The position numbers and the translations under genes were made by a program. The notes under the pieces are model-generated. The model worked only from the letters and a program-made list of their open reading frames with translations. It did no database searches and was not told the DNA's origin. This document shows, one piece after another, positions 7,611-46,300 of a stretch of DNA of 64,000 bases. The stretch spans positions 38,626,001 to 38,690,000 of the forward strand of contig OZ024758.1 of assembly GCA_964016885.1 (NCBI GenBank), written 5' to 3'. This stretch comes from Eledone cirrhosa (taxonomy: Eukaryota). Position 1 is the stretch's first letter; each line of letters begins with the position of its first letter.

Positions 7611-7985
7611 AATAAACCTTTCAAGGATTTACACAAATCCAGCCTCCTGTCATTTCATTATAATATTTAACTCCGTAAAACAAAGACAGTTGAACTGCTT
7701 CACGTTGAGTACTCTCTATATTATTGCATTACGATTGACCATACGGAATAGACCAGCTCTATACAGTGGTGAACCTCATACCTGAATAAATATATATATG
7801 TATATATATATATATATATATATATATATATATATATATATATATATACATATATATATATATATATAATGTAGGAGGTGAGTTTTATAAAGCAATGCAG
7901 ATATCGGTTAAGAAGCACTCTACAGTTTGTAGGACTGGAGTATACATAATATAAGATCAAAAGATGGTTAAAGGAGTTCCATGTA

Positions 7986-8052
7986 TTTTATTATGCGCAT
8001 TTCAAAAACAAACATCATCATGCAATAATATTTGTGTTTTCATCAGATAAAA
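7986..8052 (-). ncRNA. Type I hammerhead ribozyme, family B (left arm of palindrome)
   Basis: Reverse complement of the motif at 8180-8246. Confidence 0.82.
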
Positions 8053-8179
8053 CAGGAGAACATGATATGAAGACTAAAAAACACTTGTGGATAGTGCAGT
8101 TTTAAATCAACATATGATATGTTGATTTAAAACTGCACTATCCACAAGTGTTTTTTAGCCTTCATATCATGTTCTCCTG

Positions 8180-8246
8180 TTTTATCTGATGAAAACACAA
8201 ATATTATTGCATGATGATGTTTGTTTTTGAAATGCGCATAATAAAA
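8180..8246 (+). ncRNA. Type I hammerhead ribozyme, family B
   Basis: TTTTAT-CTGATGA-AAACACAAATATTATTGCATGATGATGTTTGTTTTT-GAAA-TGCGCA-TA-ATAAAA. Stem II pairs with G-U wobbles; palindromic stem III; predicted cut after 8240. Confidence 0.85.
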
Positions 8247-8286
8247 TACATGGAACTCCTTTAACCATCTTTTGATCTTATATTAT

Positions 8287-41254: not shown

Positions 41255-41294
41255 GTTAGTTATTTTCATATCTCAGCTTTTATCTCTCACCAGT

Positions 41295-41946
41295 CCAGGT
41301 ACTTTATTTTATCAACCCCAGTACATTACTGGTACTTTATTTTATCAATCCCAGTACATTACTGGTACTTTATTTTATCAATCCCAGTACATTACTGGTA
41401 CTTTATTTTGTCAACCCCAGTACGTTACTGGTACTTTACTTTATCAACCCCAGTACGTTACTGGTACTTTATTTTATCAACCCCAGTACATTACTGGTAC
41501 TTTACTTTATCAAGCCCAGTACATTCCTGGTACTTTACTTTATCAACCCCAGTACGTTACTAGTACTTTATTTTATCAACTCCAGTACATTACTGGTACT
41601 TTATTTTATCAACCCCAGTACATTACTGGTACTTTACTTTATCAACCCCAGTACGTTACTGGTACTTTACTTTATCAACCCCAGTACATTACTGGTACTT
41701 TACTTTATCAACCCCAGTACGTTACTGGTACTTTACTTTATCAACCCCCGTACATTACTGGTACTTTACTTTATCAACCCCAGTACGTTACTGATACTTT
41801 ACTTTATCAAACCCAGTACATTACTGGTACTTTACTTTATCAACCCCCAGTACATTACTGGTACCTTACTTTATCAACCCAAGAACGTTACAGGTACTTT
41901 ACTTCATCAACCCCAGTACGTTACTGGTACTTTACTTTATCAACCC
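41295..41946. repeat. 33-bp SINE-derived minisatellite (~20 units; ~40 units at 46636-47972; ~7 units at 53300-53520)
   Basis: Unit CCCCAGTAC(A/G)TTACTGGTACTTTA(T/C)TTTATCAA is the reverse complement of the family-1 SINE body. Confidence 0.93.
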
Positions 41947-41949
41947 TGT

Positions 41950-43335
41950 TAGGATGAAAGCCAGAGCTATAACTTCAGTAGGATTTGAACCCAGTTACGG
42001 CCCTTTACGTTCTGAGTTCAAATCCCATCAAGGTAAGCTTTGCCTTTCATCCTTACTGGGTTGATAAAATAAAGTACCAGTAACACACTGGGGTCAATCA
42101 ACACCCCTTCCCCAAATGTGTTGGCCTTGCATCTAAATCAGAAACCATTAAAATAATCTCTAAATATTATTAGTTAGAAATATTAGTTAATAATTGTTTC
42201 TACGTTAGGCACAAGGCCAGCAATTACCCCAGTGAATTACTGCTACTTTATTTTATCGACCCCGTAAGGATGAAAGGCAAAGTTAACCTCGGTGGGATTT
42301 GAACTCAGAATGGCAAGGGCCGTAACTCTATGCATCAAAGCATGGCGTCCGACCCTCCACTGATACTGCCAATCCACTGCCATTAATATTATTATTGACT
42401 AATAATATTAACTAATAATATTAACTAATAATATTAACTAATAATATTAACTAATTATATTAACTAATAATATTAACTAATACTATTAACTAATAATATT
42501 AACTAATTATATTAACTAATAATATTAACTAATTATATTAACTAATAATATTAACTAATAATATATACTAATTATATAACTCTATGCATCAAAGCATGGC
42601 GTCCGACGCTCCACCGATACTGCCAATCCACCGAATAATATTAACTAATTCAAATCCCGCCGAGGTTAACTTTGCCTTTCATCCTTACGGGGTTGATAAA
42701 ATAAAGTACCAGTAATACACTGGGGTAATTGCTGGCCTTGTGCCTAATGTAAAAATTATTTAAATTATTAGTGAATATTATTAGTTGATAATATTAGTTA
42801 ATATTATTAGTTAATATAATTAGTGAATGTTATTAGTTAATATTATTAGGTGATAATATTAGTTAATATTATTAGTTAATATAATTAGTCAATATAATTA
42901 GCTAATGAGGTTAACTTTGCCTTTCATCCTTACGGGGTCGATAAAATAAAGTACCAGTAATGTACTGGGTAATTGCTGGCCTTGTGCCTAACGTAGAAAC
43001 AATTATTAGTTCATATAATTAGTTACTATTATTAGTAAATATAATTAGTCAATATAATTAGTAAATATAATTAGTCAATATAATTAGTCAATATAATTAG
43101 TCAATATAATTAGTCAATATAATTAGTCAATATTATTAGTCAATACTATTAGTAAATATAATTAGTCAATATAATAAGTCAATATAATTAGTCAATATAA
43201 TTAGTCAATATAATTAGTCAATATAATTAGTCAATATTATTACTCAATATAATTAGTCAATATAATTAGTCAATATAATTAGTCAATATTATTACTCAAT
43301 ATTATTAATAAATATAATTAGTCAATATAATTAGA
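41950..43335. mobile_element. Cluster of family-1 SINE copies in both orientations, interleaved with a 13-bp AT-rich repeat
   Basis: SINE bodies at ~42000, ~42195-42380 (-), ~42650 and ~42908; repeat unit TAGT(C/T)AATATAAT. Confidence 0.85.
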
Positions 43336-46300
43336 AACAATTATATTTTATCAACCCCAGAATGTTGGTTGTGTGGGTTTTTTATTTCTGTATGAAGTTC
43401 AGACAGACAGCCATACAGACACATGATATGAGTGTGCAACATCGTAGCTATGTTTCTGTCAGTTGAAAGCAAGTCTTTGTATTAACTTTTAGAGAAAGTC
43501 ACACCCAGTTAAATTACATGACCTTAGGTAAGTGTATGGGAGAGACAGGAGGAGAGATAGAGAGAGAGGGGGCGAGAGAGACCGAGAGAGGGAGATAGAG
43601 GGAGAGAAAGAGATGTGAGAGAGACAGAGAGAGAGGGAGAGAGAGAAAGTGGGAAGAATGGAGACTAAAAGTGGAAGAGGCAGAGAGATAGAAAGTAAAA
43701 TGTAGTAGTAATTCTAATGTTGTATTATATATATATATATATATATATATATATGCAGAGGTTATATTTAATTTGTTGGGATTCAATAAGCTTAAAAATG
43801 TTTATAACTGATATAAAGCACTCAACAGTTTGCCTTGGTTGCCTTGAAATATGTATAATAAAATAAATATGGTTTTATAAATATAGTTTCCATTTATTAA
43901 TATATATATATATATATATATATGTATGTATAGGAAAAGAGTCAGGACCCCAACTGCTGATCTCTGGCCGGAGCTCAGCTGTTGGGTTCCTGGCTCTTTT
44001 CCTATTACCCACTCTTCTACCCTAAGTATTGAGTACTCTGAGATATATATATATACACACACACACACACACATATATATATATATATATATATGTATAT
44101 ATATATATATCCAAAATTAAAATTAAGGGTTGTCATGTCTGAGAGACATGCACCATGCGTAGAATAAGCTGAAAGATTAGATCCGAGCATTATATATCAA
44201 CTAGAAATAGATTGACATATATATATATATATAATAATAAATACATGAAACAATCACAGGGAATAATTTGTAAAGAATGTAGGCACACATAGCTAGGTAG
44301 GTAACTAATTAAAGCTTGACTAGAACTTCAAATATAGATACCTTTTAAAATGATTAATCTCCTTTGTATATATTTCTTTAAGTAAGAAATATATTTCACC
44401 TATTAATCCGTAAATCACAGCAGTTAAATTCTTGGATGTTCACCAAATGAGAAGAAAAATAACCATCTGCGTTTACACAGCAAATGCAAATCTGCGAATG
44501 ATATGAACCACGTGTTGCATTTTTTTAAAAATACACTCGTTGAACAACGTCATCCCAGTGGCCTGAATAGGACCATCGACAGCCAGAAATAGCCAGAAAT
44601 ATAAATATAAATATATATATATGTATATATAATATAAGATCAAAAGATGGTTAAAGGAGTTCCATGTATTTTATTATGCGCATTTCAAAAACAAACATCA
44701 TCATGCAATAATATTTGTGTTTTCATCAGATAAAACAGGAGAACATGATATGAAGGCTAAAAAAACACTTGTGGATAGTGCAGTTTTAAATTCGCATAAT
44801 AAAATACATGGAACTCCTTTAACCATCTTTTGATCTTATATTATGTATACTCCAGTCCTACAAACTGTAGAGTGCTTCTTATCCGATATCTGCATTGCTT
44901 TATTGTACTACAATAAAACTCACCTCCTACATTATATGTATATATATATATATATTCTCTTTTACTCTTTTAACGTGTTCCAGCGATCCAGTTGAGGCCA
45001 TGCTGGGGCATGCCCTTGTTACACATTCTTTCTCCAACCTGTGTTGGTTGGCCATTCGGCAAAGAGGGGGTTCAATGTTGCTGCCCTTAGGTTACCTTCG
45101 AACCATGCTGTGGGCTCATCCAGGATCCTGGTAACAGGGTGTCGAGATGTTCCTTGAAAACATCCACGTCCACACCATGCAGATCTCTCAAATTCCTTGG
45201 CAGCTTGTTGAAGAGGTGAAGGCCTTTGAACCCCAGGTTATTGTAATACCTGCTCCTTATTCTGTATATATTTATAAGTATATATCTATATATGTGTGTG
45301 TGTGTGTGTGTGGTAGGAAGTATGGTAAGGAACGAGGTGGACCATAACGCACCAGATCACGCGATACTTTGGTTAGTAGATATATATATATATGTGAGTG
45401 TGTGTTAAGCTATTCTATTAAATCTACCCCAGGATATCACTGGTACTATATTTTATCAACCCCTGAATTATGAAATCATTTCATTTTACGTCCCCTTTTC
45501 CCTGCTTGCAAGAGTGGGACAGGAACTGATTCTGGCTTGATTTCTACAGCTTGATGCCCTTCCTAAAACCAACCTCATTTACAGTGAGTGCTGGGTGATT
45601 TTTTGCCGTGGCACCTCTACGACCACTTTACAGTGGAATGATAGGGACTCCAGTCCCTATCATCTCATTTCTACAGCTGAGTAAACTGGAGCAATTTGAA
45701 ATAAAGTGTCTTGCTCAAGGAAACAACACATTACCCGGTCTGAGAATTGAACTCACAACCTTTCGATAAAGAATAATACAATTATAGAGATTATAAAAGA
45801 TTATAAAAGAATAATACGTATTATTCCTTTCGAATACAATAAAAGGCCTGCTGTTACAACTTTGGTATTTATTGAGGATATTGTGAATCGTTTAACCCTT
45901 TAGCATTTAAACCGGCCATATCCGGCCAGAAATCTCTCACTTTTTTCTGTTCAAACCGGCTGTAACTAGCCACTCATACTGACGTTAAGGTATTCTTCTG
46001 AAAATAAATACTATCAAAATCTCATAGATTCAATATTATGTGAGATAACTATATAAGATAAAGTGTTTACTGTGAAACTACAATAGTAAATATAGAGTAA
46101 TGTAAGTGCTAAAGGGTTAAATAACTTAAATTTACAACTTCAAGGTAAAACTCAGCTCGTAAATGAAATGTATAACCATATTGTTGCCTTTGAAAAAAAG
46201 CTACAGTTGTGGGAACATCAACTTTGAAATAAAAATTATGTGCATTTTCCATCATTTCAAGGAGGGAAATCACAGGATTCAGAGGTATTTGTGAATATAA

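Follow-up and report, generated by a model that had tools for sequence, protein, structure and literature searches.

Most short inverted inserts in a stretch of Eledone cirrhosa DNA rich in (TA)n arrays carry one long and one short arm; this asymmetry is real, and is the 'tail' already published for Penelope-like retroelements (PLEs). We analysed a window of 64,000 nt from contig OZ024758.1 (assembly GCA_964016885.1), and all counts below are counts within that window. The inserts of families B, C and D and those that look like them are best explained as pieces of several 5'-truncated PLE families lodged in (TA)n, because nine minimal hammerheads lie within these elements and GIY-YIG endonuclease remnants lie close by. 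One-sided tails are in print for inverted pLTRs (PMC3846280; PMC8557442), and the asymmetry itself is thus not novel. What is new here is a tail of about 88 nt and a junction geometry that speaks against simple fold-back. We lean towards a model in which the two target strands, once nicked, each prime cDNA at one of two fixed start sites inside the RNA, with pairing between target and RNA optional.

Inverted inserts and their end points

The B1 insert joins a long minus-strand arm (7869..8116), a pLTR piece with a minimal type I hammerhead (core 8046), to a short plus-strand arm (8117..8286, ending at 8283/8286; hammerhead core 8186) that stops at an internal site and whose final 3 nt are common to the TA flank. 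Its tail measures only 76 nt because of an 11-nt deletion. In B2, the short arm lies on the minus strand (39301..39460, hammerhead core 39398) and on its 5' side reaches beyond its partner by about 110 nt; that partner is a plus-strand long arm (39461..39601) that begins within hammerhead stem III and bears an 88-nt tail. B2 is bounded by target-site duplications (TSDs) on the plus strand at 39287..39300 and 39602..39615, the left copy of 12-14 bp with one substitution relative to the right. A further copy, B2' (44618..44946, insert 44632-44932), has two identical 14-bp duplications and belongs to a segmental duplication (38400-41946 against 43757-47283, 96.4%). The junctions at 39300 and 44631 therefore record one insertion, as the first-pass annotation had implied, and family B supplies two independent asymmetric inserts.

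A third duplicate lacks the B2 insert and retains the empty site (51628..51643, plus strand) in the TA tail at the 3' terminus of a LINE. This empty site carries a single G that is doubled in the filled copies, so B2 was a single event; the duplication length of 12-14 bp is read from it and is the sole TSD readable in the window. Precise loss of B2 from the third duplicate is unlikely, and private sites number 7, 12 and 15 per 2110 columns in the three duplicates, counts that, without an outgroup, root them weakly. B3 (26248..26512, minus strand) lies in a LINE's TA tail as a lone long arm without an inverted partner. Its 5' end was considered as an RNA start and dropped, the 5' extent of B3 not being defined.

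The end points of family B recur. The short arms of B1 and B2 share their terminal base, to within the 3 nt of an ambiguous TAT, and the long ends of B1, B3 and B2 (7869, 26248 and 39601) agree to within 1 nt. Inversion points differ, B1 being near-symmetric at 8116/8117 and B2 having a spacer of about 110 nt; the earlier claim of one internal end point shared by inserts with different inversion points is borne out. The arms of these two young inserts are 98-99% identical, and both arms of B1 carry a private 6-T variant where B2 and B3 have 7 T, which fits a single RNA donor.

Family C has a long minus-strand arm (9102..9317), with an 87-nt tail homologous to that of B, and a short plus-strand arm (9319..9446, hammerhead core 9347) whose end is U-rich and not TA-like. 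Element H (50719..50862, minus strand; copies at 38400-38541 and 43757-43897) is a single long-arm relative of B and C that begins just past the hammerhead cut position. D (13343-15527) is a symmetric counter-example: its left arm (13343..13453, minus strand, hammerhead core 13430) and right arm (15417..15527, plus strand, hammerhead core 15440) end on the same base. Thus B, C and D all have a head-to-head inverted, 5'-truncated copy at the 5' end, with the tail on one side in B and C and at neither end or both in D.

Three further inserts are inverted. E (38588..38698), probable only, is short, with arms identical at 29 of 33 positions and a 37-nt tail at the right; G (36862..37012), likewise probable only, has a central TA run and a 23-nt tail at the right; in neither was a hammerhead seen. 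F (58661..58816) is broken within its hammerhead, has a 46-nt tail at the right and is flanked by sequence other than TA arrays; its 5'-longer arm is the short-tailed one, and a second copy of its tail (38790..38834, minus strand) has the same end point beside (TA)n. Asymmetry is found in six of the seven inverted inserts with both ends visible, N (below) excluded (binomial p=0.06 against independent ends at 0.5), a set in which E, F and G are without full hammerhead or second-copy support; with only B1, B2, C and D counted, it is found in three of four (p=0.31). Homology of D, E, F and G to B, C and H was not demonstrable (z up to 2.1), and that of a hammerhead arm at 7075-7788 was borderline (z up to 2.7).

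Our descriptor scan found nine minimal hammerheads, all in these elements, against one match in 20 shuffled windows. All nine are intact and read towards flanking TA, eight of them in arms of B, C and D, so that both arms have outward-facing 3' ends, as the first-pass annotation had supposed. The motif predicted for a type I hammerhead is present in the pLTRs of B, C and D. When the whole window was searched with Rfam, the best 150 of 281 matches included no hammerhead and amounted to noise from miRNA-like hairpins; Rfam searches at C and A returned no hammerhead, and the one at D returned one that is not significant (E=6.7). Searching the window with five PLE proteins (tblastn) gave matches at N and A only, with no ORF joined to B, C or D, and the window yielded no autonomous partner for B or C.

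Position and TA pairing at the short end

The first-pass annotation had placed the short ends at internal TA microhomologies. In family B, the flank could pair with 8 nt (B1) or 9 nt (B2) of the RNA just beyond the short end, a pairing that includes a G-T wobble and, in B2, sets the G of the duplication opposite a C. This is the best TA-pairing site of the arm (1 of 228 and 1 of 122 positions). With junctions placed so as to favour pairing, sites as good or better occur at 3/54 positions in E, 14/76 in F, 18/37 in G and 59/198 in C; B, C, E, F and G each share at least 1 nt with the flank. Fisher p for this pairing is 0.008 with B included and 0.11 without B. Second-strand microhomology at the internal site is found in B, marginally in E and not in C, F or G, and it is not supported as a general rule.

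The comparison of B with C bears directly on what fixes the short end. Post-hammerhead regions of B and C, B and H, and C and H align at z 5.3-7.9 (0/300 dinucleotide shuffles each), the B-C alignment being about 56% identical (85/151 columns) in AT-rich DNA. The short ends of B and C fall in one common alignment column in five of five scoring schemes, their long ends lie within 2-4 columns of each other, and their tails are near-equal in length (88 nt in B2, 87 nt in C). At its short end, C shares 1 nt with the flank, and the same arm contains a 9-nt perfect TA run that was not used. As these related short ends sit on the same column and C has no patch, position, not TA homology, appears to fix the end. 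For C, the earlier reading was right about the asymmetry and wrong in putting the short end at a TA-like patch.

Protein-level likeness of the B and C tails is marginal (6/500 shuffles; 38/1000 for the DNA tail alone), and we therefore make no claim that the tail is the start of an ORF. Folding of the arm ends revealed no structure in common, and when five tails were tested, by a criterion fixed beforehand, for a motif lying equally far from the short end, 765 of 1000 shuffles did equally well. The motif GAGTRCT, noticed post hoc, lies 25, 30 and 25 nt beyond the short ends of B, C and E.

Element N and comparison with known systems

The left end of N adjoins element D. Its inverted left arm (15555..17774, minus strand) matches the sense copy at about 99% identity, gaps aside, and terminates within a TA run that D shares; the sense arm that it matches occupies 19005..21788 (plus strand), with a later insert at about 20040-20593. 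The sense copy contains ten runs of at least (TA)10. A possible continuation (21830..23254, plus strand) is unproven: it holds two hammerhead halves in swapped order (22526 and 23050), no second N copy in the window links 21830-23254 to N, and no intact hammerhead was found in 18570-23254. The asymmetry of N is likewise unproven; the earlier description of an inverted arm ending in the TA run that matches 21790 stands, and the continuation of the sense copy to about 23250 does not yet.

The coding remnant of N (17777..18569, plus strand) is a frameshifted C-terminal linker and GIY-YIG endonuclease with Hydra-clade motifs. Its first-pass label, Naiad-like, was rejected, as the GIY-YIG domain is not N-terminal to a reverse transcriptase (RT): the endonuclease runs into stops at 18567 and no RT follows. 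Its match in a 714-aa protein with YxDD at 345 spans residues 466-706, and the order is the same in all three matches. Judged by motifs against the published description (PMC8557442 section 11), N is probably Hydra-clade-like, with a C-terminal endonuclease. Shared features are the C-terminal GIY-YIG, the CxCx5C linker and the CxxC and CxH around conserved residues E and N (linker, CxxC and CxH seen in N translations and in three of three relatives), as well as insertion into (TA)n; RWK/RWR and DKT/DKS are present in the three full-length relatives, the corresponding RT part being truncated in N. N differs from the clade in having >3 kb of microsatellite-rich sequence past the stop and no intact hammerhead. 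The Hydra clade is described as having no CCHH motif; two cysteines between VY and YIG in N are absent from its relatives. Pfam gave no match for the N endonuclease and nothing meaningful for five relatives.

Tails reported for Adineta vaga Pen2a and D. virilis Penelope measure 30-40 bp and sit at one end of inverted pLTRs (PMC3846280; PMC8557442). The inserts described here share with these elements head-to-head inverted pLTRs, an optional one-end tail, a pLTR hammerhead, a short TSD and AT-rich or (TA)n targets, but are tiny (150-420 bp). Their tails are longer than the published ones in B and C and near the usual range in E, F and G, and the TSD of B2 exceeds the 9-10 bp of the Adineta examples.

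Poseidon of Anolis carolinensis cuts and extends both strands in vitro, is predicted to form a dimer and starts at two internal sites that are non-homologous to the target and bound the tail (PMC11167929). Two fixed start points bounding a tail, both strands usable as primers and AT-rich cut sites are common ground with our inserts; in contrast to Poseidon, family B permits 8-9 nt of pairing, and the text consulted describes no inverted double-primed products. L1 twin priming and hypothetical dual priming (PMC2837659; bioRxiv 10.1101/2024.08.27.596794) likewise have both strands prime and inverted halves within one TSD. However, the inserts here have no poly(A), their internal start is fixed and family-specific, and the enzyme is of another class. 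Twin priming of L1 leaves deletions in 66% and duplications in 17% of cases (median 22 bp; bioRxiv 10.1101/2024.08.27.596794), whereas the arms here always overlap, by 50-170 nt, and are not the mostly non-overlapping halves of that mechanism.

Proposed priming from both strands and its rivals

What is seen in the sequence is tail-out inverted hammerhead arms, two fixed end points per family and the target duplication of B2. Under the model that we favour, a GIY-YIG endonuclease would nick the TA target on both strands, leaving about 12-14 bp between the nicks, and each 3'-OH would prime reverse transcription of the pLTR RNA, one strand starting at a distal and the other at a proximal internal site about 88 nt away. 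The protein-RNA complex, not base pairing, would determine where these sites lie; the TA overhang could pair with the RNA, as over 8-9 nt in B, but would not have to, as with 1 nt in C. Each cDNA would halt at its own point, the ends being joined bluntly (B1, C) or through short microhomology (B2), and the outcome would be a head-to-head insert with its tail on a single side. The first-pass proposal that both target ends prime fits the B2 duplication and the 5'-longer arm being short-tailed in B2 and F. Its corollary of priming at the RNA 3' end found no footing: the window shows no RNA end, and the one PLE studied in vitro starts at two internal sites (PMC11167929). Counting against the model, a purely positional view leaves to chance that the short end of B is its best-pairing site, near-perfect centres in B1 and C are what self-priming predicts, and the in vitro start site of Poseidon is the same for both strands (PMC11167929). 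More tentatively, and with some doubt on our part, a dimeric PLE protein may prime both strands in order on one RNA, strictly coupling one long to one short arm. Synthesis would then begin at the distal site and next at the proximal one, displacing the cDNA made first; where a family targets TA, as B does, the proximal site would have drifted so as to pair with the TA overhang. Among the papers searched, which included few subscription papers and not the older Penelope reviews, none states that PLE inversions arise by twin or dual priming; the parts of PMC9977147 and PMC13282606 available to us contain no statement on tails.

The first-pass annotation had envisaged a twin-priming-like process in which the second TA overhang anneals to an internal TA-like patch of the RNA and so fixes the short end. 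The pairing exactly at the short end of B, the ranking of E, the nucleotides shared in five families, the TA run ending the inverted arm of N and the L1 precedent (PMC2837659) all favour this account, which we nonetheless consider unlikely: C, F and G are not enriched, C stops at the B-homologous column after passing over its TA run, the arms of B1, B2 and C have 162, 50 and 126 aligned nt in common, unlike L1 twin priming, and Poseidon initiation is non-homologous (PMC11167929). We are equally sceptical of self-priming, through a hairpin of sense cDNA or an antisense RNA template, where the copied arm would be attached to the target at a point that leaves out the tail. The antisense template was put forward by Arkhipova et al. 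2013 (self-priming is proposed in PMC3846280 Discussion), and self-priming would suit the near-perfect palindromes at the centres of B1 and C, the 4-nt inverted microhomology at the B2 junction and the private variant common to both B1 arms. However, fold-back copying of a sense cDNA cannot supply a tail missing from the template, and B2 and F carry theirs on the arm that reaches less far 5', which argues against this version. The antisense version requires an extra trimming step and leaves the fixed short end unexplained, and sense RNA works as a template in vitro (PMC11167929).

Alternatively, the short end could be an endonuclease cut made during resolution of the element's own DNA intermediate at an AT-rich, target-like site, as suggested in PMC8557442. 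Short ends do come after U/T-rich tracts, and the D. virilis endonuclease requires the tail for cleavage (cited in PMC11167929); yet C has no TA-like site at the cut and tail ends are placed at RT start sites in vitro (PMC11167929), and we regard this as improbable. It is harder still to credit that the inserts were symmetric at first and later lost one tail by slippage between the internal patch and flanking (TA)n. The B patch and the long-end junction do form an 11/13 direct repeat whose deletion would yield the observed junction, and slippage is most plausible for N, which is rich in TA runs. But C has no such repeat and shows the same asymmetry at the homologous point, an identical deletion would be needed in both of the young B inserts, and the tail is a general PLE feature.

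The origin of inverted pLTRs and tails in PLEs has been named an open question (PMC8557442), and short TA-targeting families offer a cheap genomic test of PLE inversion. Which side of an insert has the spacer and which the tail can tell double-ended priming from fold-back, and the B/C pair, with the patch present or absent at the same end, separates homology-guided from position-guided initiation. Coupled priming, if true, would explain head-to-head pLTRs without antisense self-priming. Priming from both strands would also explain the build-up of palindromes and target-duplicated TA runs in microsatellite-rich animal genomes.

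Arm ends of the inverted inserts

The DNA is AT-rich and of animal type (GC 33%), with long (TA)n arrays and remnants of LINE, C2H2 zinc-finger and GIY-YIG sequences. Self-alignment places family B, a repeat of head-to-head inverted arms, at four loci. B1, centred at 8116/8117, is an almost perfect palindrome; its left arm reaches out to 7869 and its right arm ends at 8283-8286. In B2 the polarity is reversed, and its short arm (39301-39460), which ends internally, extends ~110 nt further 5' than its tail-bearing long arm (39461-39601). B3 (26248-26512) is a solitary long arm. 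The fourth locus, 44632-44932, is not an independent insertion, because it is a copy of B2 within a 96% identical duplication of the B2 surroundings; origin by duplication, the alternative named by the first-pass annotation, thus applies to this copy, and B1 and B2 are independent. The insert is missing from a third duplicate, where the empty target has a single G within a TA run. In filled copies this G stands to the left and to the right of the insert, which defines a target-site duplication of 12-14 bp; at the 44632 copy the two sides match exactly. Two independent short ends coincide, as the annotation had claimed, and three independent long ends agree to within 1 nt. These coincident ends are the solid part of the observation.

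Asymmetry also holds in family C (9102-9446; 87-nt tail on one side), as had been described, and families E, F and G are further one-sided inserts, with extensions of 37, 46 and 23 nt. E and G are each known from a single locus, and the F tail is found again at 38790, ending at the same point; there (38790-38893), within a stretch bounded by TA runs, 56 nt of unrelated sequence adjoin it precisely at the position of the F short end. Family D is symmetric, its two arms finishing at the same base. Asymmetry therefore characterizes six of seven inserts, element N excluded (p=0.06 versus independent ends), and three of the four best supported (p=0.31). Inverted pairs lacking TA flanks at 35000-35194, 62673-63825 and 62920-62963, probably MITE-like, were left out of this tally. 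A one-long/one-short rule is suggested by these seven inserts from one window. The B short end, the C short end and both D ends lie 46, 56 and 49 nt from the predicted ribozyme cut, so D, whose homology to B and C is not demonstrable, may be a short/short insert.

Other repeats surround these loci. A 5-7 kb block at 38400-53516 occurs in three tandem duplicates, 97-98% identical outside microsatellites, among which there could be uncollapsed haplotypes. At 26202-26248 and 39602-39625, respectively, B3 and B2 meet the (TA)n tails of related LINE 3' ends (80% identical) in a tail-to-tail arrangement, and a LINE ORF remnant with RVT_1 lies at 23698-26067. Minisatellites from SINE/LINE-like pieces (1-3170, 3862-4539, 5212-6184 and 54284-55503; periods 54, 112, 96 and 45), a stop-containing C2H2 zinc-finger remnant (31225-31773) and several short, cysteine-codon-rich exon-like repeats, by eye resembling an EGF-repeat gene (56539-62565), were also seen.

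Penelope-like anatomy

A minimal type I hammerhead descriptor gave nine matches in the window and one in 20 shuffled windows. Of the nine, B arms account for five, D for two, and C and position 7557 for one each. Rfam scans did not confirm these predicted hammerheads. All nine matches read towards the flanking TA, and the arms therefore have outward-facing 3' ends, as the annotation had proposed. Judged by these predicted features, the B, C and D arms show the pLTR anatomy of Penelope-like elements (PLEs). According to PMC11167929, anole Poseidon in purified form both cleaves and extends each of the two strands, and its two start sites are internal, bound the tail and are non-homologous to the target. 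Given this anatomy and these start sites, the long/short asymmetry is a known PLE signature. A bioRxiv preprint treating retrozymes as PLE derivatives supports hammerhead-bearing non-autonomous PLE pieces; its opening part does not mention tails.

A second PLE remnant (6329-7788) has a C-terminal GIY-YIG with a CxxxxCxxC linker (6546-7001, minus strand), an 82-nt inverted arm and next to it an arm, perhaps of the same family, that carries a hammerhead (core 7557) and stops at (TA)n. Another hammerhead-like family on the minus strand has single arms at 35326-35474 and 57878-58047 with a common end point and a loose match at 35447. The motif WGAGTRCTY, a possible protein-binding candidate, occurs 17 times (palindromic sites counted twice) against 0-7 in shuffles, nearly all in PLE-like tails (7706, 38686, 39538, 9159, 38467 and duplicates); a test for a fixed distance from the short end was negative.

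Element N, a sense arm plus an inverted left arm, had been called Naiad-like, a label we reject: its endonuclease remnant (17777-18569, one frameshift) runs into stop codons with no RT behind. In its three relatives among 144 candidates RT precedes the endonuclease, and these carry RWK, DKT, CxCx5C, CxxC and CxH, the order and motifs of the (TA)n-targeting Hydra clade. The asymmetry claimed for N is unproven: the inverted arm does finish in a TA run common to D, but 21830-23254, possibly the continuation of N, has no second copy in the window by which to assign it. In the sense copy, 10 runs of (TA)10 or longer make up 9% of the sequence, and easy later deletion between them weighs against reading much into that segment. 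In favour of its belonging to N, the sole hammerhead core downstream of the N ORF is at 23050, and the complementary 3' half precedes it at 22526 (one match versus none in 30 shuffles, the pattern having been defined after it was seen). These swapped halves of one minimal hammerhead (22516-23061, plus strand) look like traces of a ~545-nt pLTR/retrozyme unit that was repeated in tandem or circularly permuted. An insert of ~550 nt, TA-flanked on both sides, is present in the right arm of N only (20040-20593), and the ~60 nt that lead up to the TA run at 23255 (23196-23254) recur beyond it at 23354-23413.

TA pairing and the position of the short end

The annotation had proposed that the second target end primes at an internal TA-like patch, which sets the short end. 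Taking the actual flank of each insert as the primer, and G-T pairs as permitted, we matched it to the part of the long arm that lies beyond the short end and set the outcome against all other positions; an ideal TA primer gave the same picture. Family B conforms: pairing is 8 nt at B1 (rank 1 of 228 positions) and 9 nt at B2 (1 of 122), where the G of the target duplication faces a C. Elsewhere it is weaker, at 1 nt in C (59 of 198), 3 nt in E (3 of 54), 2 nt in F (14 of 76) and 1 nt in G (18 of 37), and a perfect 9-nt TA run in the C arm is left unused. Combined enrichment (Fisher p 0.008 with B, 0.11 without) was computed with junctions set at the pairing-favouring edge and a wobble rule picked after B was seen. 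As a general rule, the TA patch fails.

Homology is the more informative control. Post-hammerhead regions of B, C and H align much better than dinucleotide shuffles (z 5.3-7.9, 0/300), a level that 3 of 28 pairs tested attained. B and C short ends fall on one alignment column in five of five scoring schemes, and their long ends within 2-4 columns of each other. In these alignments the end point is conserved across B and C and the TA patch is not. Family H (minus strand; 50719-50862, 43757-43897 and 38400-38541), a relative of both, begins within a few nt of the hammerhead cut position, has TA to its left and right in two of the three duplicates, and was possibly copied from self-cleaved RNA.

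Proposed priming from both target ends

Following standard target-primed insertion, the 12-14 bp duplication at B2 points to two staggered nicks with 3' overhangs. Were both target 3' ends to prime, tail-out arms would arise directly, with initiation at two position-defined internal RNA sites and flank pairing optional. We give such double-ended priming slightly better than even chances. Alternatively, the second arm could be a fold-back copied from sense cDNA or from an antisense template (PMC3846280). Fold-back is compatible with the almost perfect palindromes at the centres of B1 and C. A fold-back of sense cDNA begins inside its template and cannot gain a tail that the template lacks; since B2 and F carry the tail on the 5'-shorter arm, this simple form is excluded, whereas the antisense-template form survives their geometry. 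The 6-T run common to both B1 arms (B2 and B3 have 7 T) fits one donor RNA, but also fold-back or conversion.

At the inversion, L1 twin priming (PMC2837659; bioRxiv 10.1101/2024.08.27.596794) mostly leaves deletions or else duplications with a median of 22 bp, whereas arms here overlap by 162, 50 and 126 nt (B1, B2 and C). Under double-ended priming, either a single RNA would therefore have served as template twice, with displacement, or there would have been two template RNAs; the latter, 'dual priming', is hypothetical in PMC2837659.

The PLE tail, inverted pLTRs, (TA)n targeting, two start sites and both-strand extension are already known. Neither tails near 88 nt nor a paper that explicitly explains PLE inversions by double priming was found in the literature searched, largely without subscription and older Penelope papers. 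The feature in this window is real, non-random and of a known kind. That both target ends prime, without the TA patch as a general guide, is plausible, and in vitro work has anticipated part of it.
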